NCBI GenBank assembly: GCA_000002435.2
Contig: CM018792.1
DNA length: 64,000 nt
Strand: one strand, 5' to 3'
DNA from: Giardia intestinalis
Taxonomy: Eukaryota
The notes under the pieces are model-generated. The model was not told where the DNA came from and searched no databases. It saw only the letters and a list, made by a program, of their open reading frames with translations. Of the stretch, positions 1-18,378 are shown one piece after another (the first letter of the stretch is position 1; each line of letters opens with the position of its first letter). Position numbers and translations under genes: made by a program.

Positions 1-242
1 GGGACGGCAGTGGGTGTGTCCTGTGCTCTGTGGGTGGTTGTAAGAGCTGTGTGGTGGATGATGTGTGTGGGGAGTGTGTTGATGGATACAATCTAGAGGG
101 TGATAAGTGTGTGTCCTCTGGCGCCAACAGGAGCGGCCTCTCCACGGGGGCCATCGCGGGGATCTCCGTTGCTGTGATTGTTGTTATCGGGGGCCTCGTG
201 GGCTTCCTCTGCTGGTGGTTCGTGTGCAGGGGGAAGGCGTGA
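1..242 (+). CDS. VSP unit 0, 3' fragment (TM helix plus CRGKA tail); the gene starts upstream of the window
   Basis: Translation ends ...GAIAGISVAVIVVIGGLVGFLCWWFVCRGKA*. The nt sequence is identical to the 3' end of unit 3 (5500-5741). Confidence 0.9.
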   Translation, partial: DGSGCVLCSVGGCKSCVVDDVCGECVDGYNLEGDKCVSSGANRSGLSTGAIAGISVAVIVVIGGLVGFLCWWFVCRGKA

Positions 243-256
243 CTTAGGTAGTGAAT
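242..256 (+). terminator. VSP extended polyadenylation signal ACTTAGGTAGTGAAT overlapping the stop codon
   Basis: Matches the Giardia VSP 3' consensus ACTYAGRTAGTRAAY containing the Giardia polyA signal AGTRAA. Confidence 0.8.
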
Positions 257-266
257 GCTGTACAAT

Positions 267-318
267 GTGTGATAGAAGGTGATAGTGGGTGATAGTGTGA
301 TAATGGAGTGTGATATGT
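267..318. repeat. Inter-unit spacer minisatellite, degenerate 10-bp GGTGATARTG units (~5 units)
   Basis: gtgtgatagaag / gtgatagtgg / gtgatagtgt / gataatggag / tgtgatatgt, running into the first codons of the unit. Confidence 0.8.
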
Positions 319-2076
319 ACAGCAGCCAGTGATGGAGTGTGCACTGCTTGTAACACAGCTAACCAGTACATATTCCAGAACAAGGCTACGACAGTGACCC
401 CTGGTGGGGAGTGCATACTGTGCCATGATGCCACGGGAGCGAATGAGAACAAGGGAGTGGCTAATTGCCTCAAGTGCACGGCACCAGCTAATAGTCCAGG
501 GGCTGCCACGTGTACTGAGTGCATGTCTGGCTTCTCAGGAGACTCGTGTGCTACTCAATGCGGAGGAGACTGTGCCGCCTGTGATAAGAGTAACCAAAAT
601 CAGTGCACCTCTTGTAAGACTGGGAAGTACCTGAAAGAGAATCAATGTGTGGAAAAAAGTGCATGTAACAACAATCACTACCCCGATGACACTAGCATGA
701 CCTGCGTCGCCTGTAGCACCATACAAGATTGCACAGCATGCACAATGGACCAGTCCACGGGGAAGCCAAAGTGCACTAACTGCGGTGCCAGTAAGATCCC
801 CAGGACGACTCTCGACGGAACCTCGACCTGCGTGACAAAAGGGTATACAGAATGCCAAGGAGCAGACAAGGAGCTGTTCATGAAGGAGGACCAATCGGCG
901 TGCTTATTATGCGGAGACAATACTGAGGATACATCTGAGTCCAATAAAAACCAGGGAACTCCTAATTGCAAGACCTGTACCAAGACAGCATCCACTAAAC
1001 CGGTCTGTGAGACGTGCAAGGATGGCTTCTTCTTTAATACTGGTGATAAGACATGTACAAACAAGTGCGATGCCACCTGCAAGACGTGCTCTGCTGCTAC
1101 AGATGCTAACCGATGCTTAACTTGTATGCCCGGATACTTCCCCATCGATAGTACAGATCAACAAGGGAAGAAGTGCGTCCCATGCGATAGTGTGGACGAC
1201 AAGGGTCGCGAAGGGTGCAGTGTCTGCTCTAACAATGGTGGATTCAAGTGTACTGAATGTAAGGTGAACTATAAGAAGCAGTCCAATGGAGATGCAGGGG
1301 ATGACTATACATGTGTGAAGACCTGCGAGGATGAGACTGCCTGCGGGGGTACTTCTGGGGCTTGCGATGCAATAGTGATTGATGCTAATGGAAAGGAGCT
1401 TCACTATTGTTCTTATTGTGGAGAAGCTAATACGTATCCTATAGATGGGAAGTGTAATAGTGCTAAAGCAAATAATCAATGTGATCAAGGTGTATGTACA
1501 CAATGCACTAACAACTACTTCTTGTACATGGGTGGGTGTTATAAGTATGATACAGTACCAGGTAGCCTCATGTGCACTGAAGCAACAACAGCTGGTGTCT
1601 GTACTACTCCCAATGCCAACAATAGGTACTTCCTGGTCCCAGGGGCATCCAACACTGATCAGTCTGTACTAGCTTGTGGTAACCCCCTGGGCACACTAGT
1701 AGGCACTGGTAATACTGCTAAGGCATATGTGGGGGTGGATGGCTGCTCCCAGTGTACAGCCCCGACAGCTCTAACAACAGTTGGTATGACCCCCGCTGTC
1801 TGTACCTCCTGTGACAATAGTAAGAAGCCCAACAGGGATGGCAGTGGGTGTGTAGTATGCTCTGACACCAACTGCAAGAGCTGTGTGATGGACGGTGTGT
1901 GTGGGGAGTGTGTTGATGGATACAATCTAGAGGGTGATAAGTGTGTGTCCTCTGGCGCCAACAGGAGCGGCCTCTCCACGGGGGCCATCGCGGGGATCTC
2001 CGTTGCTGTGATTGTTGTTATCGGGGGCCTCGTGGGCTTCCTCTGCTGGTGGTTCGTGTGCAGGGGGAAGGCGTGA
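310..2076 (+). CDS. VSP unit 1 (588 codons of open frame, CXXC-rich, GGCY motif, TM plus CRGKA) without ATG or signal peptide; likely silent cassette or pseudogene
   Basis: The open frame starts right after an in-frame TAA (301-303); the first codon used by the ORF track is GTG. There is no in-frame ATG until about codon 71 (CTECMSGF), no hydrophobic N-terminus and no PyAATGTT Inr. The C-terminus is the canonical VSP TM plus CRGKA. Confidence 0.85.
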   Translation: MICTAASDGVCTACNTANQYIFQNKATTVTPGGECILCHDATGANENKGVANCLKCTAPANSPGAATCTECMSGFSGDSCATQCGGDCAACDKSNQNQCTSCKTGKYLKENQCVEKSACNNNHYPDDTSMTCVACSTIQDCTACTMDQSTGKPKCTNCGASKIPRTTLDGTSTCVTKGYTECQGADKELFMKEDQSACLLCGDNTEDTSESNKNQGTPNCKTCTKTASTKPVCETCKDGFFFNTGDKTCTNKCDATCKTCSAATDANRCLTCMPGYFPIDSTDQQGKKCVPCDSVDDKGREGCSVCSNNGGFKCTECKVNYKKQSNGDAGDDYTCVKTCEDETACGGTSGACDAIVIDANGKELHYCSYCGEANTYPIDGKCNSAKANNQCDQGVCTQCTNNYFLYMGGCYKYDTVPGSLMCTEATTAGVCTTPNANNRYFLVPGASNTDQSVLACGNPLGTLVGTGNTAKAYVGVDGCSQCTAPTALTTVGMTPAVCTSCDNSKKPNRDGSGCVVCSDTNCKSCVMDGVCGECVDGYNLEGDKCVSSGANRSGLSTGAIAGISVAVIVVIGGLVGFLCWWFVCRGKA

Positions 2077-2090
2077 CTTAGGTAGTGAAT
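2076..2090 (+). terminator. VSP extended polyadenylation signal (unit 1)
   Basis: ACTTAGGTAGTGAAT starting at the last base of the TGA stop. Confidence 0.8.
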
Positions 2091-2100
2091 GCTGTACAAT

Positions 2101-2152
2101 GTGTGATAGAAGGTGATAGTGGGTGATAGTGTGATAATGGAGTGTGATATGT
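2101..2152. repeat. Inter-unit spacer minisatellite (~5 units), identical to the 267-318 spacer
   Basis: Same sequence at the +1834 offset. Confidence 0.8.
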
Positions 2153-3910
2153 ACAGCAGCCAGTGATGGAGTGTGCACTGCTTGTAACACAGCTAACCAG
2201 TACATATTCCAGAACAAGGCTACGACAGTGACCCCTGGTGGGGAGTGCATACTGTGCCATGATGCCACGGGAGCGAATGAGAACAAGGGAGTGGCTAATT
2301 GCCTCAAGTGCACGGCACCAGCTAATAGTCCAGGGGCTGCCACGTGTACTGAGTGCATGTCTGGCTTCTCAGGAGACTCGTGTGCTACTCAATGCGGAGG
2401 AGACTGTGCCGCCTGTGATAAGAGTAACCAAAATCAGTGCACCTCTTGTAAGACTGGGAAGTACCTGAAAGAGAATCAATGTGTGGAAAAAAGTGCATGT
2501 AACAACAATCACTACCCCGATGACACTAGCATGACCTGCGTCGCCTGTAGCACCATACAAGATTGCACAGCATGCACAATGGACCAGTCCACGGGGAAGC
2601 CAAAGTGCACTAACTGCGGTGCCAGTAAGATCCCCAGGACGACTCTCGACGGAACCTCGACCTGCGTGACAAAAGGGTATACAGAATGCCAAGGAGCAGA
2701 CAAGGAGCTGTTCATGAAGGAGGACCAATCGGCGTGCTTATTATGCGGAGACAATACTGAGGATACATCTGAGTCCAATAAAAACCAGGGAACTCCTAAT
2801 TGCAAGACCTGTACCAAGACAGCATCCACTAAACCGGTCTGTGAGACGTGCAAGGATGGCTTCTTCTTTAATACTGGTGATAAGACATGTACAAACAAGT
2901 GCGATGCCACCTGCAAGACGTGCTCTGCTGCTACAGATGCTAACCGATGCTTAACTTGTATGCCCGGATACTTCCCCATCGATAGTACAGATCAACAAGG
3001 GAAGAAGTGCGTCCCATGCGATAGTGTGGACGACAAGGGTCGCGAAGGGTGCAGTGTCTGCTCTAACAATGGTGGATTCAAGTGTACTGAATGTAAGGTG
3101 AACTATAAGAAGCAGTCCAATGGAGATGCAGGGGATGACTATACATGTGTGAAGACCTGCGAGGATGAGACTGCCTGCGGGGGTACTTCTGGGGCTTGCG
3201 ATGCAATAGTGATTGATGCTAATGGAAAGGAGCTTCACTATTGTTCTTATTGTGGAGAAGCTAATACGTATCCTATAGATGGGAAGTGTAATAGTGCTAA
3301 AGCAAATAATCAATGTGATCAAGGTGTATGTACACAATGCACTAACAACTACTTCTTGTACATGGGTGGGTGTTATAAGTATGATACAGTACCAGGTAGC
3401 CTCATGTGCACTGAAGCAACAACAGCTGGTGTCTGTACTACTCCCAATGCCAACAATAGGTACTTCCTGGTCCCAGGGGCATCCAACACTGATCAGTCTG
3501 TACTAGCTTGTGGTAACCCCCTGGGCACACTAGTAGGCACTGGTAATACTGCTAAGGCATATGTGGGGGTGGATGGCTGCTCCCAGTGTACAGCCCCGAC
3601 AGCTCTAACAACAGTTGGTATGACCCCCGCTGTCTGTACCTCCTGTGACAATAGTAAGAAGCCCAACAGGGATGGCAGTGGGTGTGTAGTATGCTCTGAC
3701 ACCAACTGCAAGAGCTGTGTGATGGACGGTGTGTGTGGGGAGTGTGTTGATGGATACAATCTAGAGGGTGATAAGTGTGTGTCCTCTGGCGCCAACAGGA
3801 GCGGGCTCTCCACGGGGGCCATCGCGGGGATCTCCGTTGCTGTGATTGTTGTTATCGGGGGCCTCGTGGGCTTCCTCTGCTGGTGGTTCGTGTGCAGGGG
3901 GAAGGCGTGA
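2144..3910 (+). CDS. VSP unit 2 (protein identical to unit 1); start-less cassette
   Basis: 588 aa, identical to unit 1 (at least one synonymous nt difference, 1968 c vs 3802 g). Same lack of ATG and signal peptide. Confidence 0.85.
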   Translation: MICTAASDGVCTACNTANQYIFQNKATTVTPGGECILCHDATGANENKGVANCLKCTAPANSPGAATCTECMSGFSGDSCATQCGGDCAACDKSNQNQCTSCKTGKYLKENQCVEKSACNNNHYPDDTSMTCVACSTIQDCTACTMDQSTGKPKCTNCGASKIPRTTLDGTSTCVTKGYTECQGADKELFMKEDQSACLLCGDNTEDTSESNKNQGTPNCKTCTKTASTKPVCETCKDGFFFNTGDKTCTNKCDATCKTCSAATDANRCLTCMPGYFPIDSTDQQGKKCVPCDSVDDKGREGCSVCSNNGGFKCTECKVNYKKQSNGDAGDDYTCVKTCEDETACGGTSGACDAIVIDANGKELHYCSYCGEANTYPIDGKCNSAKANNQCDQGVCTQCTNNYFLYMGGCYKYDTVPGSLMCTEATTAGVCTTPNANNRYFLVPGASNTDQSVLACGNPLGTLVGTGNTAKAYVGVDGCSQCTAPTALTTVGMTPAVCTSCDNSKKPNRDGSGCVVCSDTNCKSCVMDGVCGECVDGYNLEGDKCVSSGANRSGLSTGAIAGISVAVIVVIGGLVGFLCWWFVCRGKA

Positions 3911-3924
3911 CTTAGGTAGTGAAT
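3910..3924 (+). terminator. VSP extended polyadenylation signal (unit 2)
   Basis: ACTTAGGTAGTGAAT. Confidence 0.8.
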
Positions 3925-3934
3925 GCTGTACAAT

Positions 3935-3986
3935 GTGTGATAGAAGGTGATAGTGGGTGATAGTGTGATAATGGAGTGTGATATGT
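3935..3986. repeat. Inter-unit spacer minisatellite (~5 units)
   Basis: Same sequence at the +3668 offset. Confidence 0.8.
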
Positions 3987-5741
3987 ACAGCAGCCAGTGA
4001 TGGAGTGTGCACTGCTTGTAACACAGCTAACCAGTACATATTCCAGAACAGGGCAGACAAGGTGACTCCTGGTGGGGAGTGCATCTTGTGCTCTGATATC
4101 AAGGGAGCGAATGGATATACGGGAGTGGCCAACTGTCTCAAGTGTACGGCACCAGCTAATAGTCCAGGGGCTGCCACGTGTACTGAGTGCATGTCTGGCT
4201 TCTCAGGAGACTCGTGTGCTACTCAATGCGGAGGAGACTGTGCCGCCTGTGATAAGAGTAACCAAAATCAGTGCACCTCTTGTAAGACTGGGAAGTACCT
4301 GAAAGAGAATCAATGTGTGGAAAAAAGTGCATGTAACAACAATCACTACCCCGATGACACTAGCATGACCTGCGTCGCCTGTAGCACCATACAAGATTGC
4401 ACAGCATGCACAATGGACCAGTCCACGGGGAAGCCAAAGTGCACTAACTGCGGTGCCAGTAAGATCCCCAGGACGACTCTCGACGGAACCTCGACCTGCG
4501 TGACAAAAGGGTATACAGAATGCCAAGGAGCAGACAAGGAGCTGTTCATGAAGGAGGACCAATCGGCGTGCTTATTATGCGGAGACAATACTGAGGATAC
4601 ATCTGAGTCCAATAAAAACCAGGGAACTCCTAATTGCAAGACCTGTACCAAGACAGCATCCACTAAACCGGTCTGTGAGACGTGCAAGGATGGCTTCTTC
4701 TTTAATACTGGTGATAAGACATGTACAAACAAGTGCGATGCCACCTGCAAGACGTGCTCTGCTGCTACAGATGCTAACCGATGCTTAACTTGTATGCCCG
4801 GATACTTCCCCATCGATAGTACAGATCAACAAGGGAAGAAGTGCGTCCCATGCGATAGTGTGGACGACAAGGGTCGCGAAGGGTGCAGTGTCTGCTCTAA
4901 CACTGGTGGATTCAAGTGTACTGAATGTAAGGTGAACTATAAGAAGCAGTCCAATGGAGATGCAGGGGATGACTATACATGTGTGAAGACTTGTGAAGAC
5001 CCCACGGCTTGTGGTGGGACCTCTGGCGCCTGCGATGCTATAGTAATCGACAATGATGGAGTAGAGCATCATTACTGTTCTTATTGTGGAAATCAAGGAG
5101 ATGTACCAATCAATGGTATATGCACCAGCTCACTTGCAAGTAATACCTGCGCCGATGGTGTCTGCAAGTCTTGTGCTCAAGGGTACTTTATGTATATGGG
5201 AGGGTGCTATGATGTGTCGAAGGCTCCTGGTAGTCACATGTGCAAGAAAGCAGATAACAATGGGATATGCACAGAGGCGGCAAGTAATAGGTACTTCGTA
5301 GTCCCTGGGGCACAGACCACTGATCAGTCTGTACTAGCTTGTGGTAATCCCCTTGGCACACTAGTAGATCCTCAAGGTACCGCTAAGGCATATGTGGGGG
5401 TAGATGGCTGCTCCCAGTGCACAGCCCCGACAGCTCTAACAACAGCTGGTATGACCCCCGCTGTCTGTACCTCCTGTGACAGTGATAGGAAGCCCAACAG
5501 GGACGGCAGTGGGTGTGTCCTGTGCTCTGTGGGTGGTTGTAAGAGCTGTGTGGTGGATGATGTGTGTGGGGAGTGTGTTGATGGATACAATCTAGAGGGT
5601 GATAAGTGTGTGTCCTCTGGCGCCAACAGGAGCGGCCTCTCCACGGGGGCCATCGCGGGGATCTCCGTTGCTGTGATTGTTGTTATCGGGGGCCTCGTGG
5701 GCTTCCTCTGCTGGTGGTTCGTGTGCAGGGGGAAGGCGTGA
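3978..5741 (+). CDS. VSP unit 3 (587 aa), mosaic of unit 1/2-like and unit 4-like segments; start-less cassette
   Basis: The N-terminal two thirds are identical to units 1/2 apart from a variant block near 4040-4130. The central block (about 4987-5470) resembles unit 4, including a 113-bp stretch 5286-5398 identical to 7149-7261. The 3' end is identical to window nt 1-242. Confidence 0.85.
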   Translation: MICTAASDGVCTACNTANQYIFQNRADKVTPGGECILCSDIKGANGYTGVANCLKCTAPANSPGAATCTECMSGFSGDSCATQCGGDCAACDKSNQNQCTSCKTGKYLKENQCVEKSACNNNHYPDDTSMTCVACSTIQDCTACTMDQSTGKPKCTNCGASKIPRTTLDGTSTCVTKGYTECQGADKELFMKEDQSACLLCGDNTEDTSESNKNQGTPNCKTCTKTASTKPVCETCKDGFFFNTGDKTCTNKCDATCKTCSAATDANRCLTCMPGYFPIDSTDQQGKKCVPCDSVDDKGREGCSVCSNTGGFKCTECKVNYKKQSNGDAGDDYTCVKTCEDPTACGGTSGACDAIVIDNDGVEHHYCSYCGNQGDVPINGICTSSLASNTCADGVCKSCAQGYFMYMGGCYDVSKAPGSHMCKKADNNGICTEAASNRYFVVPGAQTTDQSVLACGNPLGTLVDPQGTAKAYVGVDGCSQCTAPTALTTAGMTPAVCTSCDSDRKPNRDGSGCVLCSVGGCKSCVVDDVCGECVDGYNLEGDKCVSSGANRSGLSTGAIAGISVAVIVVIGGLVGFLCWWFVCRGKA

Positions 5742-5755
5742 CTTAGGTAGTGAAT
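5741..5755 (+). terminator. VSP extended polyadenylation signal (unit 3)
   Basis: ACTTAGGTAGTGAAT. Confidence 0.8.
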
Positions 5756-5766
5756 GCTGTACAATG

Positions 5767-5856
5767 TGTGATAATGGGTGATAATGGGTGATAGAAGGTG
5801 ATAGTGGGTGATAGTATGATAGTGGGTGATAGTGTGATAATGGAGTGTGATATGCA
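5767..5856. repeat. Inter-unit spacer minisatellite, expanded (~9 units)
   Basis: gtgataatgg gtgataatgg gtgatagaag gtgatagtgg gtgatagtat gatagtgg gtgatagtgt gataatggag tgtgatatgc. This accounts for the 35-bp longer period (1869 vs 1834). Confidence 0.8.
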
Positions 5857-7604
5857 CAAAGGCTGAGGGAGGAGTATGCACTGAGTGTAATACAGATAAC
5901 GGCCTGTTCAAGAACCCGGCTGCAACAGTGACTCCTGGTGGGGAGTGCATCCTCTGCTGGGACACGGTGGGAGATGGCGCGACGAAGGGAGTCGAGGGCT
6001 GTGCCACATGTACGGCACCACAGAATGCAGGAGCAGCTACATGTGATACCTGCCAAGATGGATACTACATGGACTCTCAGGCATGTGTCAAATGTAATGA
6101 CGCTTGTCTGACTTGCGATGGAAGTGGCCAGAATGCGTGCACATCGTGTCCAGAGGGGAAGTACCTGAAGGGTGATAACACTTGTGTAGATGCTAATCAA
6201 TGTGGTGCTGATAAGTACGCAGACAAGAAGACCTGGACCTGCAAGGCATGTGATCCCGACATAGCTGGGTGCACCGCATGTGAATATAATGATGCCACGG
6301 GGAAGCCGAAGTGCACCAATTGTAACGGGAAGCTGATAAGAACTGCTGCCGACGGGACGACAACGTGCGTTGAGGCAAATGGGTGCGCTCAAAATAACGT
6401 CGCAGGTACGCACTTTCTGACCACAACCAGTGACAAGTGCCTACTGTGTAACGACGTTAGCGATACCAGCGAACCGGCCAATAAGGGAGTCGAGGGGTGC
6501 GGCAAATGTAAAAAAGAGAATTCTAACGCAGCCCCAGTCTGCACAGAATGCCTGGAGGGATATTACAGTAGCGGTGGTAGCCCTGTTACATGCAAGCCCT
6601 GTGTAGACAACTGTGGCGCATGCACTGCGGAAGACATGGGGACGTGTACAAAGTGCAAGCCAGGGTACTTCCTTAAGGATGGTCAGAGAACAAAGGAGTG
6701 CGTTCCTTGTAGTGATACAACCAAAGGTGGCATCGATGGCTGCAGTGTCTGCTCGAATGATGGCAATACTTTCAAGTGCACCGATTGTAAGCCCAACTAT
6801 CGCAAGCAGAGCGATAGCAGTCCTGGCTCTGTCACATGTACCAAGACTTGTGAGGATCCTACAGCTTGTGGTGGTACCTCTGGTGCCTGTGATGCCATAG
6901 TGATCAATGAGAATGGAAAGGAGCTTCACTACTGTTCATACTGTGGAGATAGCTCACAAGCTCCCATTAATGGAAAATGCACAAGTACTAACGAGGGAAA
7001 TGATGGATGTGCTAATGGTGTCTGCAAGTCTTGTGCCGCTGCTAACTACTTCCTCTATATGGGAGGGTGCTATGATGCGTCGAAGGCTCCCGGTAGTCAC
7101 ATATGCAAGACAGCTGAAGGTGGTAAGTGCACTGCTGTTAATGATGGTAATAGGTACTTCGTAGTCCCTGGGGCACAGACCACTGATCAGTCTGTACTAG
7201 CTTGTGGTAATCCCCTTGGCACACTAGTAGATCCTCAAGGTACCGCTAAGGCATATGTGGGAATAGATGGCTGCTCACAGTGCACAGCCCCAGCAGGTCT
7301 GTCTGAGGGTGGCATGACCCCCGCTGTCTGTACCTCCTGTGACAATAGTAAGAAGCCCAACAAGGATGGCAGCGGGTGTGTGCTGTGCTCTGACACCAAC
7401 TGCAAGAGCTGTGTGATGGACGGTGTGTGTGGGGAGTGCAACAGTGGCTTCAGTCTAGACAATGGTAAGTGTGTGTCCTCTGGCGCCAACAGGAGCGGGC
7501 TCAGCACGGGCGCCATCGCGGGCATCTCCGTCGCCGTGGTCGTTGTTGTGGGGGGCCTCGTCGGCTTCCTCTGCTGGTGGTTCGTGTGCAGGGGGAAGGC
7601 GTAG
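5847..7604 (+). CDS. VSP unit 4 (585 aa, diverged paralog); start-less cassette
   Basis: Same architecture and conserved blocks (MGGCYD..., QSVLACGNPLGTLVDPQGTAKAYVG..., TM plus CRGKA). GTG first codon and an in-frame stop just upstream. The stop is TAG. Confidence 0.85.
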   Translation: MICTKAEGGVCTECNTDNGLFKNPAATVTPGGECILCWDTVGDGATKGVEGCATCTAPQNAGAATCDTCQDGYYMDSQACVKCNDACLTCDGSGQNACTSCPEGKYLKGDNTCVDANQCGADKYADKKTWTCKACDPDIAGCTACEYNDATGKPKCTNCNGKLIRTAADGTTTCVEANGCAQNNVAGTHFLTTTSDKCLLCNDVSDTSEPANKGVEGCGKCKKENSNAAPVCTECLEGYYSSGGSPVTCKPCVDNCGACTAEDMGTCTKCKPGYFLKDGQRTKECVPCSDTTKGGIDGCSVCSNDGNTFKCTDCKPNYRKQSDSSPGSVTCTKTCEDPTACGGTSGACDAIVINENGKELHYCSYCGDSSQAPINGKCTSTNEGNDGCANGVCKSCAAANYFLYMGGCYDASKAPGSHICKTAEGGKCTAVNDGNRYFVVPGAQTTDQSVLACGNPLGTLVDPQGTAKAYVGIDGCSQCTAPAGLSEGGMTPAVCTSCDNSKKPNKDGSGCVLCSDTNCKSCVMDGVCGECNSGFSLDNGKCVSSGANRSGLSTGAIAGISVAVVVVVGGLVGFLCWWFVCRGKA

Positions 7605-7606
7605 GT

Positions 7607-7621
7607 ACTTAGGTAGTGAAT
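7607..7621 (+). terminator. VSP extended polyadenylation signal (unit 4), displaced 3 nt after the TAG stop
   Basis: tagGTACTTAGGTAGTGAAT. Confidence 0.75.
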
Positions 7622-7629
7622 GCTGTACA

Positions 7630-7692
7630 GTGGGTGATAGAGGGTGATAATGGGTGATAGTGTGTGATAGAGGGTGATAGTGGAGTGATATC
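7630..7692. repeat. Inter-unit spacer minisatellite (~6 units, diverged)
   Basis: gtgggtgatagag ggtgataatg ggtgatagtgtg tgatagag ggtgatagtg gagtgatatc. Confidence 0.75.
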
Positions 7693-7824
7693 TGCACAGC
7701 AGCCAGTAATGGAGTATGCACTACTTGTAAGGCAGATAACGGCCTGTTCAAGAACCCGGCTGCACCATCAGAGAAGGGTAGTGAGTGCATACTGTGCTCT
7801 GATACGACAGATAGAAACGGGGTC

Positions 7825-9504
7825 ATGGGAGTCGCTGGATGCTCAGAATGCTCCCACACGGGCACTAGCGGACCGGCCACGTGTACAGAGTGTCAAGCAG
7901 GGTTCGTTACGAAGGACAGTGCATGTGTGAAGTGCGGAGAGGGCTGCTCTGCCTGCTCAGCTGATACTCCGACTCAGTGTACCGCCTGCGTTGAGGGGAA
8001 GTTCCTGAAGGCTGACAAGTGTGTGGATGCTAATCAATGTGACAATGGTAAGTATGCAGACCCAAAAACAGGCCAATGCAAGGCCTGCACGGACACAAGT
8101 GTCAATGAATGTGCTACGTGTGCATACAGCGACACTCTTCAGAAGCCTGTGTGCACTGGGTGTAATAGTGGAGGAAACCTGCTTCTTAAGGTGAACCCCG
8201 ATGGGTCAGCGACGTGTGTTGCGGAGGCAGAGTGCACAAGTGGCAATACGCACTTCCTTGAACAATCTCCAAAAGCTTGTGTTCCATGTGGTGATACTAA
8301 AAATGGTGGGATTCTAGGTTGTGATACCTGCTCCTCTAAAACTACATGTACAAAGTGCCTCGATGGATATTACAATAGTGCAAGTGGTAATACCGCTACA
8401 TGCACAGCCTGTGGTGAGAACTGTGCCACCTGTGCTAAGGATACAAAAGACCAATGCACGACCTGCAAGCAAGGGTACTTCTTGAAGGATAGCTCCTCTG
8501 GTGAGTGCATCTCATGTAGTGATACAGCAAATGGTGGCCGCGATGGGTGCAGTGCATGCTCTAACAGTGGTGGATTCAAATGTACTGACTGTAAGCCTAA
8601 CTATAAGAAACAGCTTAATGGAGATGCAGGGGATGACTATACGTGTACAAAGACCTGTGAAGATGAGACTGCATGCGGGGGGACAGCAGGGGCCTGCGAC
8701 GCCATCGTGGTCGGCAACGACGGCAGCATGCTCTCTTACTGTTCAAAGTGTGTTGGCGCCGGCTATGGCCCCATTAATGGGAAGTGCACCAATGCACTTG
8801 CAGGTAATACCTGCGCCGATGGTGTATGTACGCGGTGCACCAACAACTACTTCCTCTATATGGGTGGCTGTTATAAAGCAACAGAGGTGCCTGGTAGCCT
8901 CATGTGCTCCGAAGCAACAACAGCTGGTGTCTGTACTACTCCCAATGCCAATGATAGGTACTTCGTAGTCCCAGAAGCAAAGGCTACTGATCAGTCTGTA
9001 CTAGCCTGTGGCAACCCCCTAGGCACACTAGTAGACCCTCAAGGTACTGCTAAGGCATACGTGGGGGTGGATGGCTGCTCACAGTGCACAGCCCCAGCAG
9101 CTCTGTCTGATGGTGGTATGGCTGCTGCTATATGCACTTCTTGTGACAATAGTAAGAAGCCCAACAAGGATGGCAGTGGGTGCTTCACATGTACCATCGA
9201 TGGATGCTCGCACTGCAATAGAGACAACATGTGCGAGGCATGTAGTGATGGTAAGAAGGTGAGCCCTGGGAGGAAGTCATGCGTGGATAAGTGTCCCAGC
9301 AACTCCACTGACACCGACTCTGTCTGTGTGTGCAACGATGGATACAGCCCTGACAGCAGTGGGACCTCCTGTGCGTCCTCTGGCACCAACAGGAGCGGGC
9401 TCTCCACGGGGGCCATCGCGGGGATCTCCGTCGCTGTGGTCGTTGTTGTAGGAGGCCTCGTGGGCTTCCTCTGCTGGTGGTTTATTTGCCGCGGTAAGGC
9501 GTAG
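7825..9504 (+). CDS. VSP unit 5 (559 aa from the first in-frame ATG; the open frame homologous to the other units starts at 7681); diverged, with a replaced membrane-proximal module
   Basis: The frame is open from 7681 (WSDICTAASNGVCTTCK..., parallel to WSVICTAASDGVCTACN in units 1-4) after TAG at 7678-7680. There is no signal peptide. The C-terminal region CFTCTIDGCSHCNRDNMCEAC...VCVCNDGYSPDSSGTSC replaces the module of units 1-4 but keeps the TM plus CRGKA tail. Confidence 0.8.
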   Translation: MGVAGCSECSHTGTSGPATCTECQAGFVTKDSACVKCGEGCSACSADTPTQCTACVEGKFLKADKCVDANQCDNGKYADPKTGQCKACTDTSVNECATCAYSDTLQKPVCTGCNSGGNLLLKVNPDGSATCVAEAECTSGNTHFLEQSPKACVPCGDTKNGGILGCDTCSSKTTCTKCLDGYYNSASGNTATCTACGENCATCAKDTKDQCTTCKQGYFLKDSSSGECISCSDTANGGRDGCSACSNSGGFKCTDCKPNYKKQLNGDAGDDYTCTKTCEDETACGGTAGACDAIVVGNDGSMLSYCSKCVGAGYGPINGKCTNALAGNTCADGVCTRCTNNYFLYMGGCYKATEVPGSLMCSEATTAGVCTTPNANDRYFVVPEAKATDQSVLACGNPLGTLVDPQGTAKAYVGVDGCSQCTAPAALSDGGMAAAICTSCDNSKKPNKDGSGCFTCTIDGCSHCNRDNMCEACSDGKKVSPGRKSCVDKCPSNSTDTDSVCVCNDGYSPDSSGTSCASSGTNRSGLSTGAIAGISVAVVVVVGGLVGFLCWWFICRGKA

Positions 9505-9516
9505 ATCTAAACATAA

Positions 9517-9531
9517 ACTTAGGTAGTAAAT
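9517..9531 (+). terminator. VSP extended polyadenylation signal (unit 5), 13 nt after the TAG stop
   Basis: tagatctaaacataaACTTAGGTAGTAAAT. Confidence 0.75.
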
Positions 9532-9795
9532 TGTCATAGATGAGTCCTGCTCAGTGACCATCTTCGTGGGTCTGGGTACAAGTGCTCCTCGGTGTGTAAC
9601 GGACTTCACGGGCAACAAGGAGCAAGGAATGATTGTGCATTCTCGCTAGCGGCTTTCGTATCCGTGCATGCGTTATAAGTTATTATTCTGGCCTCCCACG
9701 TCTTGACCCCTGCAGGACCTCTGCATGTGGGTATGATGCACGGTAGAAGAGAGTAGCAACGAATACAAAGGGCAGCAGAGAGCGCCGGGCCTCGG

Positions 9796-12360
9796 ATGAC
9801 AGGCTGGGTGTGGCCAATGGAATCATTCGCTAAGACAGATAAAGTTATAGTAAAAAAATCCCAGATGACGCAGAATTGGCGTCCGCAGAGTAGGCTCCAG
9901 ACCATGACGTTTGCCGGCACGGCTCGCCCTATGACTTCCATGACTGCAGCTGGCTTTACAAAGAATCCTTTGGCAACAGCAGGGGTAGCGAGTATTTTTG
10001 ACAAACTCCCACCAGAACCCCCGAAGGATTCTCCAGAACAGAAGGCCGATCAAATGGAGATCAATATTTTTAAGCTGCTTCGCGACGGAATGAGTGCTGC
10101 CAGTTGTAAAGACTATGTTACTGCTTTGGGCAGAATTCGTGAGGCGATCAAGTTGGAGCAAAAGGTATCACAGCACAGAACCATGAACGGGCTTGCTGAT
10201 AGCATTAACTTGGATTTGCGTACGTGTATATGGATGCATTGGGCTCAAATTCAGGCTCTTGGCGGGCAGCCGGAAATGGCTCTTTCGACGTATGAGAAGA
10301 TTGTCAAGACAGCGGAAGGCGCAACTCTCGCCCAGATACGGTTCAACATGGGAAACATAAATCACAACCTTGGAAAGTATAACGAAGCATTGAAGAATTT
10401 CAGAATGGCTATCGATCAGGCTTCCCCCAGCCTACCCCGCTTTAGACAAAAGATAGCGAGCCACATGGCTCAATCATGCATTAAGTTACACAGATGGCAG
10501 GACGCAGTAGATCGTATCGAGGAGTATCTCATAAAGCAGTACACATTGGCCAGTTCGGTGGGTACTGACGTCGAAAGACAGAACTTCTATGCGATGACGA
10601 CCCGCTTTGATCCGTTATACACAGTGTTAATAGGATACTATGCCCTAGGTGTTCCAGAGAAGATGATCGATGCTTATTCTCGCTTAATAGACTCTAGTAT
10701 TCTCATTAGCGACCACCCAGACAGTCTCGAGATTGATGACCATCACAACGGGATCAGTAGTAAGCAGATAGCAATGGCAGATGCTGAGCTGTGCAATATG
10801 AGCAATGACGACGAGCTGGATGATTTGAGCCGCTACAACGCGACGCTTCGACACGAGCATACAAACAAGCTTCTAATCAGTGCACGCCTGCTCGCACCAG
10901 CTATCGCATGGGAAGAGTCCCAGGGCTACGCGAAGCTCAGCGATATTCTCCGGGAGAAGGGTCACCATGGCATCTCTCTGCAAGTCCAAATGTCGATGGC
11001 GCTAACACTTCTCAAGAGGAATGAGTTTGAGAAAGCCACAGATATCATGCTTCGCATTGATCGCGAAGGACTCGAAAGCGCCCTTGCTCTGGGGATCAAC
11101 GTGCCGCTGTCTATTTTGCAGAAGACACGTAACCTTTCTCTCACTGCAGCTGCGACGGCTGTGACTAACCAGGAAAGTGATCTGCACTTGCTCGGAATAG
11201 ACCCCAGTGTTCTGGCAAATCAACAATCCGTCGTCGATAGGGATGCAGTTGCCAGCCGCGGGGCACCCGAAGTGGACATGTTAAAAACTGACGATGATAA
11301 TGGGACCAAAAAGCAGCCATACGCAGCGTTTGTGCCCAGAGGGGTCCATACTAACATCGCCTTTATTTACTACCTCAAGGGAGACTATGAGGCGAGCGCA
11401 AGGCACGCCCAGATTGCTCTAGAAATAGACCCCTACGATTCCTTTGCCCACATTAATCTTGGATGTACCTACAGTAAGACTAACCAGTGGGAGCTCTCTC
11501 TGCGTGAATTCCTCAAGGCTCAGGAGATCAATATGGAGTCCGTTCAAGCTACTTACAACGCAGGGCTGGTTTACTTCAAGCAACAAGAATACAAAACAGC
11601 ATACTCCTGCTTCCAGAAGGTTGCCAGCAAACTTCCAAGCTATGGAGATGCTATTTACATGAGCGCAGACTGCCTTGCCAGAATGTCACAAATCGACGAG
11701 GCAATCCAAATGCTCAGCAACTTGGTTACAATGTTTTCAGCAGTCAAAGCCTATGACCCCAGTATTTACATAAGACTGGGCGAGCTTTACTCAATAGCCG
11801 GCGACGAGGGACAAGCTGCACACTATTTCAAAGAGGCGCACAGGCTTGTACCCTTCAGTCTGGCAGTTATTAACTGGCTGGGGTCGCACTATATCAAGAA
11901 TGAGCTGTATGAACAGGCGCGCGTGTGCTTTGAGAAGGCTAGCAGAGTTGACACGACGACGCCCAAATGGTCTCTTGCCGTTGCCGCTTGTTTGCGGAAG
12001 TCAAAGCAATATAGGGATGCAATCTACGAGTACAAACATATTCTTAAGAGATTTCCAACCAACACCACTGCCATGACCCACTTGATCTCTTCACTAAACA
12101 ACATTGGACAGCACAAAGAAGCAGATGAGTGGGCAGAAAAGCTCACTAAGCTAACTAACAATAAGGTACCAGAGGTAACGGAAGACCGAGAACTCGATGA
12201 ATTTGTCAAGCAGGAGAGAAGGAACTCAGTGGCTGCCGTTGGACCTGGATCAAGAGCAGGTCAGGATCGATTCGAGGCAAGCAATAATAGAGTAAGTTCT
12301 AATACCGGAGATCTGTTCGGGGATGTGGATATCGCCGAAGAGCTTCTCACAGAAAACTGA
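9796..12360 (+). CDS. IFT88: Intraflagellar transport protein 88 (IFT88/Tg737/polaris), TPR-repeat protein
   Basis: Blocks colinear with metazoan IFT88: RPMTSMTAAGFTK, KDSPEQK, NINLDL, MGNI...FRMAIDQ, and the C-terminal NWLG.HYI...KWSLAVAAC...KRFP...AEKLTKL. An alternative start at ATG 9865 (MTQNWRPQ) has the better AT-rich upstream (gtaaaaaaatcccagATG). Confidence 0.85.
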   Translation: MTGWVWPMESFAKTDKVIVKKSQMTQNWRPQSRLQTMTFAGTARPMTSMTAAGFTKNPLATAGVASIFDKLPPEPPKDSPEQKADQMEINIFKLLRDGMSAASCKDYVTALGRIREAIKLEQKVSQHRTMNGLADSINLDLRTCIWMHWAQIQALGGQPEMALSTYEKIVKTAEGATLAQIRFNMGNINHNLGKYNEALKNFRMAIDQASPSLPRFRQKIASHMAQSCIKLHRWQDAVDRIEEYLIKQYTLASSVGTDVERQNFYAMTTRFDPLYTVLIGYYALGVPEKMIDAYSRLIDSSILISDHPDSLEIDDHHNGISSKQIAMADAELCNMSNDDELDDLSRYNATLRHEHTNKLLISARLLAPAIAWEESQGYAKLSDILREKGHHGISLQVQMSMALTLLKRNEFEKATDIMLRIDREGLESALALGINVPLSILQKTRNLSLTAAATAVTNQESDLHLLGIDPSVLANQQSVVDRDAVASRGAPEVDMLKTDDDNGTKKQPYAAFVPRGVHTNIAFIYYLKGDYEASARHAQIALEIDPYDSFAHINLGCTYSKTNQWELSLREFLKAQEINMESVQATYNAGLVYFKQQEYKTAYSCFQKVASKLPSYGDAIYMSADCLARMSQIDEAIQMLSNLVTMFSAVKAYDPSIYIRLGELYSIAGDEGQAAHYFKEAHRLVPFSLAVINWLGSHYIKNELYEQARVCFEKASRVDTTTPKWSLAVAACLRKSKQYRDAIYEYKHILKRFPTNTTAMTHLISSLNNIGQHKEADEWAEKLTKLTNNKVPEVTEDRELDEFVKQERRNSVAAVGPGSRAGQDRFEASNNRVSSNTGDLFGDVDIAEELLTEN

Positions 12361-12394: not shown

Positions 12395-14512
12395 TCATTC
12401 GTCAAAAACATGTAGGTCAGCAGAGAAGAATCCGCCCTGCTTGTGTAAACGAGGGCCACATGAGCTATTATCATCGGATTGAAGTGGGGGAGGGAGGCCG
12501 TTCTCACAAGGTTTAACGGACTCCGGATTGGTCGATCCAGACGATTCCAGAATAAGGCCGTTGACATCATTGTGAAAAGACCCAGGGCATGAGTACGCTA
12601 GAGGGGACGATAGAATCTCGGTTGAGGCTTTGGATGAAATAGTAGGGCAGTTTCTGGTCTCTCGTTCTGACGTTTCTAGTAAAGAAAATATATTGTCTGG
12701 TTTCCGGCCCGAGCTAGGATCTTTTTTCGGTGATACTGAACATGCCGTGAATAACTCGTTGCTAAGAGCACTATGATTATGTAGCTGAGTAGTTTGGAAG
12801 CACTCATCAACAACCGCTGCAAGCTTATCCCTTGCAGTGTGAGATACTACAGTGTTGTGTGTAATTGTTTCAGATGTAAATGCGTCATACTTAAAAGCGG
12901 TGATCATTTTCGCATGAGGATCATGCGTTGCTTGCTGGTCAGATGAAGGATTTGAAAAGGCCTTTCGGAAGGATAATATATTTATGGGATCCGTATATAA
13001 ATTAGATGAACTTTGGACAGATCCATTGAGTAGCTGTAGTCCGTCAGCAGAGGCTAGAGAAACAGTGGTGCTACACGGGAAAGACATGTCTGACACTGGC
13101 TTTCTCAGCGCCGATCGTGCAGCAGCATAGTGCAACCGCTGAAGAGATCGAAAGCACCTGTCTATATACCCTTCGTCAAAGTAGTCAAGCTGATGTCTAT
13201 ACAGTACAGTGCAGAGGTCTGCTGCATTACTTGGGGATGTGCTATCGTCTGTGGACCGCTTCCTCAGGTCGTTTTGGGCCTCTTTTAGTGTTTGGTATTG
13301 TAGTGCAAGGGGAACTGGAAGATTAGAGCGATCAGAGCGTGGCTTGCGCGACGTGGATGGCGGACATTCTGGAGAGCTATTATCTATTGATCTTGTAAAG
13401 GGCAACGGATGAAGGATGCCGGTACACGCTAGACACGCTTCAAAGGGGGTAAACGGCGCGCCGTAACACCATTGATTGAGAAACTTGATGAGTTGCCCAT
13501 CTTCCTCATTGAAAGGGTGAAACGGAACCACCTCGAAGGAGAGAGGATCGAAGACATGATGGTACCTAAATGTCAAGTACGCTTGTAGAATTAAGTGAAC
13601 GTACTCATCAAAGGACTCCACATCTCCTGGAAGCTTTTTGTGGTGGCCATAGCGCAAGATCTGCGCCGCTGACACTATCCCATCCGTTTTTCCCACAGTA
13701 TTCACGCTCGTTATCAAGCCTACTCCCACCAGACTTGGGGTATAATCACATCCACTGAGAATACAGGCCTGCTGAAAGCGTAGATGCCTGGCGAGAACAG
13801 TGCCAGTAGCAATTCTATTTGGCTCCGTGTTGTCGACCAAAGCAGCAACCCGTGAAGAGACCTTAGGTGTATTAAGGGATTCAAAGCCGTTTAGATAAAG
13901 ATCGTCTATGGTAGACAGGAAACCTGTACCTGTGCGCCAGTTGTACTTGTACAATGCCTTCCTAGGACCATAAAGCAAAATGTCTGAGTCGTTAGTGACA
14001 ATGACGTCCCCCATGCCAAGTTTCTGCAAGTAGGCCACTTGAGCGTCTGCCTCATAAGGAGCGATCAGCACTGCAAAGTTGTCGTGCTTCTCGAGCCGTT
14101 TGAAGACACCATTGGCGATTCGTGACACCTGCAGATTACTAAATGAAATTGCTTTTTTGAGGGCGTTTTCAGCCTCTTCTGAGTCACCTGCTGAGGAATA
14201 GGCCTCTGCAAGTGCAAGACTCGCGTCTCTGGCCTGCTTTCTCCGAGAGTTAGTGAAGGTCTTACTGGGGAGGGAACCTCCATCAAACACAAGGGTAACG
14301 AACGTTGCAGATGGCAAGATGGATCCTACAAGCTGAACCATCACATCTATAACTCCGCTAATGTTATTTTTCAGAACTAACGCCTTTGGGTCTAATATTG
14401 CTGCCGCATGTAGAAAGCAGTGTCCGTCGATAACGAAGGAACTTCCGCGTAGCTGCGTGATTTTAATCCATTGTGCTCTCCGTATAGCGGTTAAGAGACC
14501 AGATATCCCCAT
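12395..14512 (-). CDS. EXO1: Exonuclease 1 (XPG/Rad2-family 5'-3' nuclease; XPG-N and XPG-I domains)
   Basis: N-terminal MGISGLL; LVFDGGSLPSK, APYEADAQVAYL and VTNDSDILLYG match EXO1 motifs (LVFDGCTLPSK, APYEADAQLAYL, ITEDSDLLAFG). Confidence 0.8.
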   Translation of the reverse strand: MGISGLLTAIRRAQWIKITQLRGSSFVIDGHCFLHAAAILDPKALVLKNNISGVIDVMVQLVGSILPSATFVTLVFDGGSLPSKTFTNSRRKQARDASLALAEAYSSAGDSEEAENALKKAISFSNLQVSRIANGVFKRLEKHDNFAVLIAPYEADAQVAYLQKLGMGDVIVTNDSDILLYGPRKALYKYNWRTGTGFLSTIDDLYLNGFESLNTPKVSSRVAALVDNTEPNRIATGTVLARHLRFQQACILSGCDYTPSLVGVGLITSVNTVGKTDGIVSAAQILRYGHHKKLPGDVESFDEYVHLILQAYLTFRYHHVFDPLSFEVVPFHPFNEEDGQLIKFLNQWCYGAPFTPFEACLACTGILHPLPFTRSIDNSSPECPPSTSRKPRSDRSNLPVPLALQYQTLKEAQNDLRKRSTDDSTSPSNAADLCTVLYRHQLDYFDEGYIDRCFRSLQRLHYAAARSALRKPVSDMSFPCSTTVSLASADGLQLLNGSVQSSSNLYTDPINILSFRKAFSNPSSDQQATHDPHAKMITAFKYDAFTSETITHNTVVSHTARDKLAAVVDECFQTTQLHNHSALSNELFTACSVSPKKDPSSGRKPDNIFSLLETSERETRNCPTISSKASTEILSSPLAYSCPGSFHNDVNGLILESSGSTNPESVKPCENGLPPPLQSDDNSSCGPRLHKQGGFFSADLHVFDE

Positions 14513-17133: not shown

Positions 17134-18378
17134 ATGGCCACCTCAGCCGTGACTACAACGGCTTGTCCTGGCGAAGACTTGCTCACCGAGCTGACTAGTG
17201 GGGTTCTGCTGGACGTAGATGTGGGCCACAAGTGGTCTGAGCTATCTACATCTATAGCGCCCGAACTTGTAGAGAAGGCTTTGCCTGTTCTGCTGGCCAC
17301 GACTCCTTCTCCGGCCCTGCCAGTAGTTCGGATAGCTTCTTTGGCACAGGAGATAATTGCACATTATCTAGCAGAGACAGTAGATTATTCTACAACCGTC
17401 CACCTCCAGGAGCAGCTAGAAAAGTGGGGCAGGCAGCATAATCTTGAGTTTGTTTCTACCAGGGCCGTACAGGACCAGGTAGACGGCCTTCTACGCATGG
17501 AAAACATGCACACTTGGGTAAAAGCGGCCTCGATGATTGATAGTTTGATAACAGAGGCTCGGGGCCGAGACCCTTCGGCCGCTCTAATTAGGACACACCT
17601 CCTGGCTGCAGAGACGTTCACACGAATAAAGCATTATAGCAAGGCCCGATCTTACATGATGTCTGCACGCGCCATGAACATCAAACTCTCCCCAGAGATG
17701 CACGCTCGCATGGACGCAGTCTCTGGATGCGTTTGCATATGTAGCGATGACTACGCGGGTGCTGCAGGTTACTATCAAGAGGCATCCAACTTAGGGTATC
17801 CCTGTGTTTCGCAGCTCCTTCTGGTCAAGACACTCCAGAGACGTTTCTTCGAGGTAGACGCAGTTCTGCAGAATAGACGGAAGTACGCGACCCCAGAGAA
17901 GATCGCCCGTTTCCCTCAGTGGATGGTAGACGCAGACAATGCAATCTTACCCAAGATTCGGAAGCTGGGGATACTCCTTGATGGGAAGCTTAACAAGCTC
18001 CTCCTCGAGCAGCTTAACACGCTAGTGGACGAGGTGCTTGCGGTGAAAAATGCAGCGTTTGAGGTCTACACTGTTATTCAAATTATCAGAAGGTCTGAAA
18101 CACTGAATTTTATTCTGAAGATGCTGCGGCCGTACAAGCGTGTCGAATTGTCACACGTTTCAGGGTTCATTAATATGAGTGAAGAGGAAGCAAAGGAATA
18201 CCTATCCCAGCTCATCATCAACGGCGATCTGCCCTTTGTAATCGAAGAGGGCGCGGGCACTCTAATACGGATTGAAAGAGAACGGACCTCAAACACGGAA
18301 TTTATTGAAGAAGCCACCAAGGCTGTCGACCTCGCAAGTGCGTTACTCACTTCGTGCATCTCCAAGTCTAACATCTAG
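17134..18378 (+). CDS. PCI-domain protein (26S proteasome lid / COP9 signalosome / eIF3 subunit family)
   Basis: C-terminal PCI/winged-helix signature ...LKMLRPYKRVELSHVSGFINMSEEEAKEYLSQLIINGDLPFVIEEGAGTLIRIE preceded by helical repeats. AT-rich promoter ttgatctaaaaaaATG. Confidence 0.55.
   Translation: MATSAVTTTACPGEDLLTELTSGVLLDVDVGHKWSELSTSIAPELVEKALPVLLATTPSPALPVVRIASLAQEIIAHYLAETVDYSTTVHLQEQLEKWGRQHNLEFVSTRAVQDQVDGLLRMENMHTWVKAASMIDSLITEARGRDPSAALIRTHLLAAETFTRIKHYSKARSYMMSARAMNIKLSPEMHARMDAVSGCVCICSDDYAGAAGYYQEASNLGYPCVSQLLLVKTLQRRFFEVDAVLQNRRKYATPEKIARFPQWMVDADNAILPKIRKLGILLDGKLNKLLLEQLNTLVDEVLAVKNAAFEVYTVIQIIRRSETLNFILKMLRPYKRVELSHVSGFINMSEEEAKEYLSQLIINGDLPFVIEEGAGTLIRIERERTSNTEFIEEATKAVDLASALLTSCISKSNI

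Follow-up and report, generated by a model that had tools for sequence, protein, structure and literature searches.

Bases 1-9504 of the analysed 64-kb stretch of Giardia intestinalis DNA (hereafter referred to as the window) comprise the tail of one partial VSP unit followed by five complete units arranged head to tail (Table 1). The stop codons of these units end at positions 242, 2076, 3910, 5741, 7604 and 9504, and unit starts at positions 310, 2144, 3978 and 5847 result in spacings of 1834, 1834 and 1869 nt. Proteins encoded by the array units terminate in the VSP signature tail ...GFLCWWFVCRGKA, and their stop codons are followed by the extended poly(A) signal within CTTAGGTAGTGAA. Beyond the array, genes encoding Exo1 and a proteasome component were identified, the products of which are 100% identical to the G. 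intestinalis WB proteins XP_001705564 and XP_001705567, respectively. The window accordingly stems from WB or from an almost identical isolate of assemblage A1. Neither the exact protein encoded at 7825-9504 nor the one encoded at 9796-12360 had a database record. A query with Exo1 retrieved 23 Logan contigs of this locus, every one of them ending inside unit 5.

Table 1. Features of the pseudo-VSP array, its internal junctions and the control regions within the window.
Feature	Position	Strand	Characteristics
Pseudo-VSP unit 0, 3' tail (...FVCRGKA-stop)	1-242	+	100% identical to unit 3 tail, 5500-5741
Junction 1, constant part	243-268	+	CTTAGGTAGTGAA (AGTGAA at 250-255) and linker TGCTGTACAATGT
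Decamer tract 1	269-316	+	GTGATAGAAG GTGATAGTGG GTGATAGT GTGATAATGGAGT GTGATAT; 5 copies including the coding last one (V-I-C)
Pseudo-VSP cassette 1	304-2076	+	opens WSVICTAAS..., ends CRGKA-stop
Decamer tract 2	2103-2150	+	same as tract 1, 5 copies
Pseudo-VSP cassette 2	2138-3910	+	1 base in 1834 different from cassette 1
Decamer tract 3	3937-3984	+	same as tract 1, 5 copies
Pseudo-VSP cassette 3	3972-5741	+	mosaic: blocks 100% versus only 56-67% identical to cassette 1
Decamer tract 4	5768-5853	+	9 copies including the coding last one
Pseudo-VSP cassette 4	5841-7604	+	WSVICTKAEGG...CRGKA-stop
Decamer tract 5	7634-7691	+	6 copies; TRF also reports a 30-nt higher-order period
Pseudo-VSP cassette 5, last of the array	7681-9504	+	WSDICTAASNG...CRGKA-stop; first in-frame ATG at 7825
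Flank after the last unit (negative control)	9505-9795	+	AGTAAA poly(A) signal, no decamer tract
Exo1	12395-14512	-	
Proteasome component	17134-18378	+	
Solitary intact VSP (negative control)	62429-63660	+	initiator TAATGTT, signal peptide MFEKILLGIAILQMARA

The locus represents a Giardia pseudo-VSP "linear array", an arrangement that has been described previously, and all defining features tested were observed. These are at least two head-to-tail units with very short spacers (67-105 nt), the CRGKA tail, a conserved TM domain, the extended poly(A) signal ACTTAGRTAGTRAA and downstream members devoid of the Inr (PyAATGTT), the start codon and the signal peptide. Furthermore, the window shares with published linear arrays, as presented in the searchable text of PMC2996952, PMC7000408 and bioRxiv 10.1101/2022.03.07.483299, the spacers of some tens of bases as well as the mosaic or duplicated nature of its units; the last of these sources is also that of the extended PAS motif ACUUAGRUAGURAA. 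According to Adam et al. 2010 (PMC2996952), over half of the WB vsp genes are located in linear arrays with a mean spacer of 60 bp, the downstream members possess no Inr and are probably not expressed, and linear arrays may serve as recombination cassettes. A role of pseudo-VSP arrays as gene-conversion reservoir has likewise been proposed in PMC2996952 and PMC7641422, and antigen switching in Giardia is held to be epigenetic or post-transcriptional, as stated in the former. The three array papers give spacer lengths, and a decamer repeat within spacers is not mentioned in their searchable text (PMC2996952, PMC7000408, bioRxiv 10.1101/2022.03.07.483299). Moreover, a literature search for GTGATAGTG in combination with Giardia returned no relevant match. 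This type of array with its short spacers is known biology, and the decamer tract appears to be an undescribed detail as far as the literature search reached.

Immediately behind the tract, the frames of the cassettes open with W-S-V/D-I-C-T-A-A-S. An in-frame ATG is first encountered 48-76 codons further downstream; in cassette 1, which features no signal peptide, it is codon 74. In full-length VSPs of WB and P15, the corresponding motif (G)SEICTAA is found at residues 108-110, following the signal peptide, the N-terminal domain and FLFMGGCY. Based on this correspondence, the cassettes are devoid of the initiator, the ATG, the signal peptide and approximately 107 codons of a full-length VSP. 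A near-identical full-length partner was found for none of the window cassettes, the best identity values being 61-64%.

A common order was observed at all five internal junctions, namely the stop codon, CTTAGGTAGTGAA, a 13-nt linker, a tract of GTGATAR+3 units and the next cassette, which is entered at S-V-I-C-T-A-A. In letters, the layout reads (A)CTTAGGTAGTGAA, TGCTGTACA(A/G)TG(T/G), GTGATAR+3 units, some of which are just 8 nt long, and GTGATATG(T/C)ACAGCAGCC. The latter string at the tract end already represents cassette coding sequence, and the last GTGATAT copy is coding, as anticipated in the first-pass annotation, according to which the repeats continue into the opening codons of the following unit. 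Distances from the stop codon to GTGATATG amount to 67, 67, 67, 105 and 80 nt at junctions 1 to 5, and junction 5 spans 220 nt if unit 5 is counted from its first in-frame ATG. Together, both measures reproduce the spacer range of 67-220 bp reported before. The proposed location of the repeat at cassette borders was confirmed as an exact position at every internal junction.

Differences between array-internal and other VSP 3' flanks were also observed for the poly(A) signal, which is AGTGAA in array-internal units versus AGTAAA in the terminal unit and in the solitary intact VSP. The decamer tract is absent both upstream and downstream of the solitary intact VSP. Since it is also missing after the last unit of the array, the tract is a feature of cassette-cassette junctions and does not characterize the 3' flanks of VSPs as such. 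Being G/U-rich and beginning 13 nt past AGTGAA, just beyond the expected cleavage zone, the tract might serve 3'-end formation of the upstream unit, either as a GU-rich downstream element or by pausing or terminating the polymerase. Such a function is extremely improbable, however, as both the last array unit and the solitary intact VSP use AGTAAA and have no tract, and pseudo-VSP arrays of G. muris were reported to be essentially untranscribed. To our knowledge, no report exists of Giardia needing a downstream element.

Exact matches to GGTGATARTG occur 13 times in the window, compared to 0.21 expected, and none of 100 shuffled sequences reached this number. Twelve of the 13 matches are located inside junctions, all of them on the + strand, and the presence of this repeat in each inter-unit spacer, as noted in the first-pass annotation, was thereby corroborated at all five junctions. 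Tracts of at least three cores were not detected outside the junctions on either strand of the 64 kb. The tracts are tandem repeats, consisting of short head-to-tail units far above chance (TRF period 10). Moreover, the + strand of all tracts contains no C, and when the C-free runs of the window are ranked by length, the top five (92, 63, 56, 56 and 56 nt) coincide with the five junctions.

Within the stretch 5767-5856, eight RTGATAR cores were located at positions 5768, 5778, 5788, 5798, 5808, 5816 (ATGATAG), 5826 and 5834, corresponding to spacings of 10, 10, 10, 10, 8, 10 and 8 nt. The ninth copy of tract 4, GTGATAT at 5847, is cassette coding sequence. TRF delimited this tract to 5763-5843 with a period of 10 (8.5 copies) and additionally recognized a period of 18. 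Counting the coding copy, the tracts of junctions 1 to 5 contain 5, 5, 5, 9 and 6 units, which agrees with the earlier estimates of about five, nine and six. Since junctions 1 to 3 were copied from one another by unit duplication, the window holds three independent tract alleles and not five.

Tract length varies in register, by whole 8-10-nt units or by 18-, 20- or 30-nt multiples thereof. Tract 4 corresponds to tract 1 plus two GTGATAATGG units on the 5' side and an internal 18-nt duplication, in which GTGATAGTGG GTGATAGT is followed by ATGATAGTGG GTGATAGT. The period of 1869 versus 1834 nt (+35 nt) is explained by a tract that is 38 nt longer, minus the 3 nt by which unit 3 is shorter; extra repeats before unit 4 had correctly been suspected as the cause. 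Whole-unit change in register, higher-order periods of 18 and 30 nt and the lack of a coding or structural signal are properties shared with micro- and minisatellites. Unlike these, the Giardia tract is tied to the cassette junction and inherited with the 1.8-kb unit.

Double stops of the type TGA-TAG or TGA-TAA were found in all three frames at every junction of the window. They result from the 10-nt period containing TGATAG and are not universal, as the 6-nt-phased tract versions of the old WB gene models are open. Given the missing Inr, ATG and signal peptide and a tract closed in all frames, the window cassettes are not translatable on their own. Regarding RNA structure, no consistent fold was detected in the tracts (+ strand z-scores of -1.7, -0.7 and +0.9), and the junctions yielded no Rfam family or tRNA match. 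A 9-bp stem formed by GCUGUACA and UGUACAGC around tracts 1 to 3 on the minus strand (z = -4.0) was rejected as a conserved feature because it is lost in tracts 4 and 5.

Beyond the window, the tract recurs in two independent ENA contigs, L001 and L011, where its unit variants follow one another as in the window. Two junctions of contig L001 (ENA, ERZ27316335) feature the same anchor and three decamers in phase into GTGATATGCACAGCAGCC. Contig L011 (ENA, ERZ27260139) contributed three junctions with the tract. One of them comprises seven units in a variant order almost as in tract 4 of the window, and the subsequent cassette begins 16 codons earlier with M-G-L-L-F-I-G-G-C-Y-K-T-E-S-Q-P-G-S-E-I-C-T. 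The second features a single unit followed by a mini-cassette of 70 codons, and the third is interrupted by the contig end. Cassettes following the tract are accordingly cut at three different points, namely GLLFIGGCY, ICTAAS and the 70-codon mini-unit. Including the coding copy, numbers of units per tract are 5, 9 and 6 in the window, 4 in L001 and 1 to 7 in L011.

Additional traces of the tract were found in the old WB annotation, which carries it in translated form as "MLYSDSDSDS...". The models P0001, P0007, P0008 and P0011 start with MLYSDSDSDSAMWCGGDSGG... or MIVLCGVLCSVGDSDS..., followed by GLLFMGGCY, and from these sequences we infer that the N-termini of all four models represent the translated linker ATGCTGTAC and an AGTGAT-type tract. 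These old WB arrays thus feature 6-nt-phased versions of the tract (SDSDSDS corresponding to AGTGAT repeats). A protein search with a translated-spacer N-terminus returned no candidates. Searching JGI metagenomes with GTGATARN3GTGATARN3GTGATAR yielded 120 unrelated, mostly perfect decamer satellites, none of them with a VSP signature, and this screen is uninformative for Giardia.

In contrast, no decamer tract was present in approximately 190 kb of other Giardia DNA, which covers VSPs from P15, GS and an ENA assembly, some intact and some frameshifted. The surroundings of VSPs that are intact or nearly so were likewise free of it in the small sample formed by the window, L002, L003, L012 and L133. 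Two P15 hits (P0027 and P0041) were discarded as array candidates, being full-length VSPs that are either solitary or frameshifted. The conjecture that assemblage-B "VNDPAG..." ORFs begin in the AGTGAA of the preceding unit proved wrong, since the ORF in question is not part of an array. Two head-to-tail VSP junctions of assemblage B (GS) are devoid of the tract; here, a degenerate tail (...KSSSALCC-stop) and about 40 nt precede signal-peptide coding sequence in which the ATG is replaced. Since these junctions do without it, the tract is no general property of arrays and marks one assemblage-A-type array family cut near FMGGCY/ICTAA. The expectation that the repeat marks other VSP arrays consequently holds for L001, L011 and the four old WB models and fails for the assemblage-B arrays.

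The first-pass annotation had also considered a degenerated initiator. Specifically, the VSP initiator and the first signal-peptide codons (PyAATG TTG TTG ATA GC...) could have decayed and been amplified later. Junctions 1 to 4, L001 and one L011 junction (L011a) start with ACAATGTGTGATAG, which resembles the CACAATGTTGTTGATAGC at the start of a P15 VSP, and the Inr PyAATGTT is almost exclusive to VSP starts. Moreover, assemblage-B array members retain the start-less signal-peptide region right after the preceding unit. However, the window contains 56 copies of YAATGT, approximately the number expected by chance, and A is replaced by G in junction 5 as well as in the two other L011 junctions (L011b and L011c). 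In the old WB arrays, CAATGT would be located after the first repeat block, as deduced from P0001 and P0011, and the rest of the signal peptide leaves no trace downstream. The junctions read CAATGTG followed by M-C-D-R-R-stop, or CAGTGG in the case of junction 5, and do not show the VSP Inr feature, i.e., PyAATGTT with an ATG opening a signal peptide. An origin of the tract from an initiator is therefore judged quite unlikely.

Every unit contains TGATAG or TGATAA and thus a WGATAR match, with TA steps recurring each 10 nt. WGATAR is the consensus of GATA factors. Four to nine such sites at approximately helical-turn phase might constitute a putative protein-binding cluster or chromatin organiser that silences or insulates the cassettes, a silencing site being among the possibilities raised in the first-pass annotation. 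In 31 units drawn from three sources, the TGATA core hardly varies, whereas positions 7-9 do. On the other hand, if the substitutions are counted as minimal events, there are six of them, each at another position of the decamer (6/10). This distribution gives no significant signal, so that a constrained core cannot be claimed. In addition, a silencer would be superfluous for cassettes possessing neither promoter nor ATG, and the 6-nt-phased old WB versions break the 10-nt phasing. Taken together, there is very little probability that the tract serves as such a cluster. Its near-invariant TGATA core is not explained by pure neutrality; inheritance of few old variants could account for it. A structural or binding role would also fit the C-free strand asymmetry and the 10-nt phasing.

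Concerning recombination, unit 1 and unit 2 differ by a single base, and unit 3 is a mosaic. When aligned with unit 1, it is 100% identical in columns 0-100, in columns 300-1100 and from column 1800 onwards, but only 56-67% identical in columns 1200-1500. The visible exchange boundaries between units 1 and 3 are accordingly located within coding sequence, away from the tract. Complete identity of the unit 0 and unit 3 tails over 242 nt defines a higher-order period of 5499 bp. These identical tails adjoin junctions of 67 versus 105 nt, from which it follows that either tract length outpaces substitution in the flanks or an exchange fell exactly at this site.

The tract could be an active recombination junction, at which breaks, template switching or misalignment cause expansion and contraction of the array and which sets the 5' limit of cassette copying. 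Such a role would suit the gene-conversion reservoir proposed for the arrays (PMC2996952 and PMC7641422). In this type of array, including L001 and L011, the tract is found at the 5' edge of each silent cassette, one tract type abuts three truncation points, and length differs beside 100% identical tails. Furthermore, the first cassette codon GAG reads GTG, meaning that the coding start mimics a repeat unit, which suggests local homogenisation, and the C-free, G-rich strand is extremely asymmetric. Several observations speak against this role. Intact VSPs examined (window, L002, L003, L012, L133) carry no tract, and since it is absent from every full-length VSP examined, the tract is unable to provide homology on the recipient side. 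The mosaic boundaries between units 1 and 3 are intragenic, assemblage-B arrays exist without a tract, and the best full-length partner of the window cassettes reaches the modest identity stated above. Moreover, the tract covers 40-90 bp, and the adjoining 3' 117 nt together with the PAS are longer, better conserved and hence the likelier crossover substrate. In view of these results, an active recombination junction is considered unlikely. The earlier proposal of a recombination-prone repeat is supported by the length difference beside identical tails and by the three truncation points, whereas intragenic breakpoints and full-length VSPs free of the tract disagree with it.

Position and strand bias of the tract resemble elements of other antigen gene systems. 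In Pneumocystis, tandem silent MSG genes without promoter, start codon and leader carry a short conserved element, the CRJE, at their 5' edge. A further copy of the CRJE resides at the single expression site, and the element is translated. In contrast, the Giardia tract is untranslatable, and no copy was found at the intact VSPs examined. The 70-bp repeats of Trypanosoma brucei are likewise degenerate, strand-biased, variable in copy number and located directly 5' of silent cassettes. These repeats are present in expression sites, too, and delimit conversion tracts, whereas in Giardia no recipient copy was found at the intact VSPs examined and the breakpoints seen are intragenic. The vls locus of Borrelia burgdorferi also consists of contiguous, promoter-less head-to-tail cassettes with short direct repeats between them and a G/C strand skew. 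For vls, segmental conversion into vlsE is proven, and its 17-bp repeat is single per border. It differs from the Giardia locus in being bacterial and in featuring one 17-bp copy per border instead of a tandem tract. Since the intact VSPs examined provide no matching copy, the tract was not classed with the CRJE, the 70-bp or the vls repeats despite its like position. By analogy, it might still represent a Giardia counterpart of the CRJE or of the trypanosome 70-bp repeats, i.e., a cis-acting, strand-asymmetric element starting or limiting cassette copying, an interpretation regarded as very doubtful.

Based on the results presented above, the tract is probably a scar left where the 5' end of the cassette was truncated, which is prone to slippage, travels passively in the duplicated unit and has no sequence-specific function. 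The junction layout, the enrichment, the length changes in register, the recurrence in further arrays of assemblage-A type and the absence from intact VSPs were observed directly, and the slippage mechanism as well as the lack of such a function are inferred. The tract occupies the space from the poly(A) signal of a silent cassette to the codons with which the following cassette begins, and it marks the site of the missing initiator, ATG, signal peptide and approximately 107 N-terminal VSP codons. As part of the repeating unit of the array, it is copied at each unit duplication. Replication slippage or unequal exchange would then add or remove whole units of 8-10 nt at a pace exceeding that of substitution in the flanks.

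Regarding the origin of such a scar, the favoured seed, proposed with low confidence, is formed by the first codons retained at the original truncation (...C-G-D-G..., TGY GGY GAY GGN), which may have expanded subsequently. The 3' end of the tract in L011 (TGT GGG GGT GAT AGT ATG GGA CTT CTC TTC ATA GGA GGA TGC TAC) aligns with the stretch of a full-length VSP gene that encodes CGDGYFLFMGGCY, the counterpart being TGC GGC GAC GGG TAC TTC CTC TTC ATG GGC GGG TGC TAC (C-G-D-G-Y-F-L-F-M-G-G-C-Y). This alignment suggests that GGTGATAG may represent degenerate G-D-G codons from the original cut that were amplified later. A later deletion of approximately 50 nt (GLLFMGGCYKTESQPG) would have brought the tract beside S-E-I-C-T in the window array, and the strings ATGG/AGTGTGATATGC in the window (the slash denoting the putative joint) versus ATGGGA...GGCAGCGAGATATGC in L011 are consistent with such a loss. 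The resemblance to G-D-G codons spans 9-15 nt, and this origin is accordingly put forward as tentative. The LEGDKCV box was dismissed as an alternative seed. It shares the 13-mer TAGAGGGTGATAA at positions 7638-7650 and 94-106, but shared k-mers are at chance level, with shuffles giving 12/200 for junction 5 and much worse values for the other junctions. The choice among seeds leaves the main conclusion unchanged.

A large part of the antigen gene space of Giardia consists of pseudo-VSP arrays, with 208 pseudo-VSPs versus 133 VSPs in WB. The junction signature is of practical use as a marker by which cassettes can be located and delimited and old gene models with translated-spacer N-termini can be spotted. 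Furthermore, the tract offers a fast-evolving length marker for array typing in long-read data as well as a defined sequence for testing a recombination or chromatin role of array borders. Should the tract be no more than a slippage scar, as is judged likeliest, its value lies in annotation and typing and not in mechanism. If the CRJE-like reading were true, cassette exchange at the DNA level would feed the renewal of the VSP repertoire, even though antigenic variation in Giardia is held to be purely epigenetic.

In the VSP array, the partial first unit and unit 3 have identical tails (100%). Since these tails lie 5499 bp apart, a distance corresponding to units 1+2+3, a three-unit higher-order repeat is present in the array, which therefore almost certainly extends leftward beyond the window. 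Furthermore, units 1 and 2 including their junctions differ by one base only, which suggests that they were duplicated or homogenised very recently. Over the first 60 residues from its first ATG, unit 5 matches 'VSP S7' (UniProt Q8I8W2) at 59; beyond them the two proteins diverge, and identity is 57% overall. Unit 5 is thus related in a mosaic fashion to a VSP sequence from elsewhere.

Decamer tracts 1–3 are flanked on both sides by an 8–9-bp inverted repeat (GCTGTACA … TGTACAGC). Its minus-strand fold scored z = -4.0, and equally stable folds were obtained for 0/200 shuffles. This repeat is probably incidental because it is decayed at junctions 4 and 5. Regarding poly(A) signals, the variant AGTGAA was observed in array-internal units, and AGTAAA in the terminal array unit as well as in the solitary intact VSP.

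Head-to-tail VSP junctions of assemblage B (GS) follow a different design, in which a degenerate tail (…KSSSALCC*) is followed by approximately 40 nt and then by a stretch that codes for a signal peptide but has another triplet in place of the ATG (…ACAATCTCC… or …AGAATCTTG…). The decamer tract was absent at the GS junctions examined in contigs L010 and L009. Moreover, the ENA contig ERZ27260139 (L011) contains a 70-codon mini-cassette between two junctions, retaining only …CVGGCKSCVV…CRGKA* and resembling the 224-bp 'vsp14' of Adam et al. 2010.

Coordinates of features in the VSP array, at the solitary VSP and in other contigs
Feature	Sequence	Position
Tail, partial first unit	window	1-242
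Tail, unit 3	window	5500-5741
Unit 1 with junction	window	243-2076 (1971 C)
Unit 2 with junction	window	2077-3910 (3805 G)
Unit 5, shared 60 residues	window	7825-8004
Inverted-repeat arms	window	257-264 / 316-323
AGTGAA	window	250-255, 5749-5754, 7615-7620
AGTAAA, terminal unit	window	9520s
AGTAAA, intact VSP	window	63660s
GS junction	L010	1700-1800
GS junction	L009, minus strand	~1368-1376
Mini-cassette	L011	1880-2147
Extra in-frame ATG	window	62344
Inr-type start TAATGTT	window	62429

In the Logan contigs of the array locus (L004–L008), every short-read assembly breaks off within unit 5, in its conserved 3' end, so that most public assemblies do not show the array. Judging from their protein sequences, the old WB gene models P0001, P0007, P0008 and P0011 start at the ATG overlapping the poly(A) signal of the preceding unit, and their N-termini represent the spacer tract in translation (MLYSDSDSDSAMWCGGDSGG…). 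These spacer-derived N-termini are annotation artefacts. The open frame of the intact VSP includes an extra in-frame ATG, 29 codons upstream of its Inr-type start, and a naive ORF call across this segment (62344-62430) would result in a wrong N-terminus for the intact VSP.
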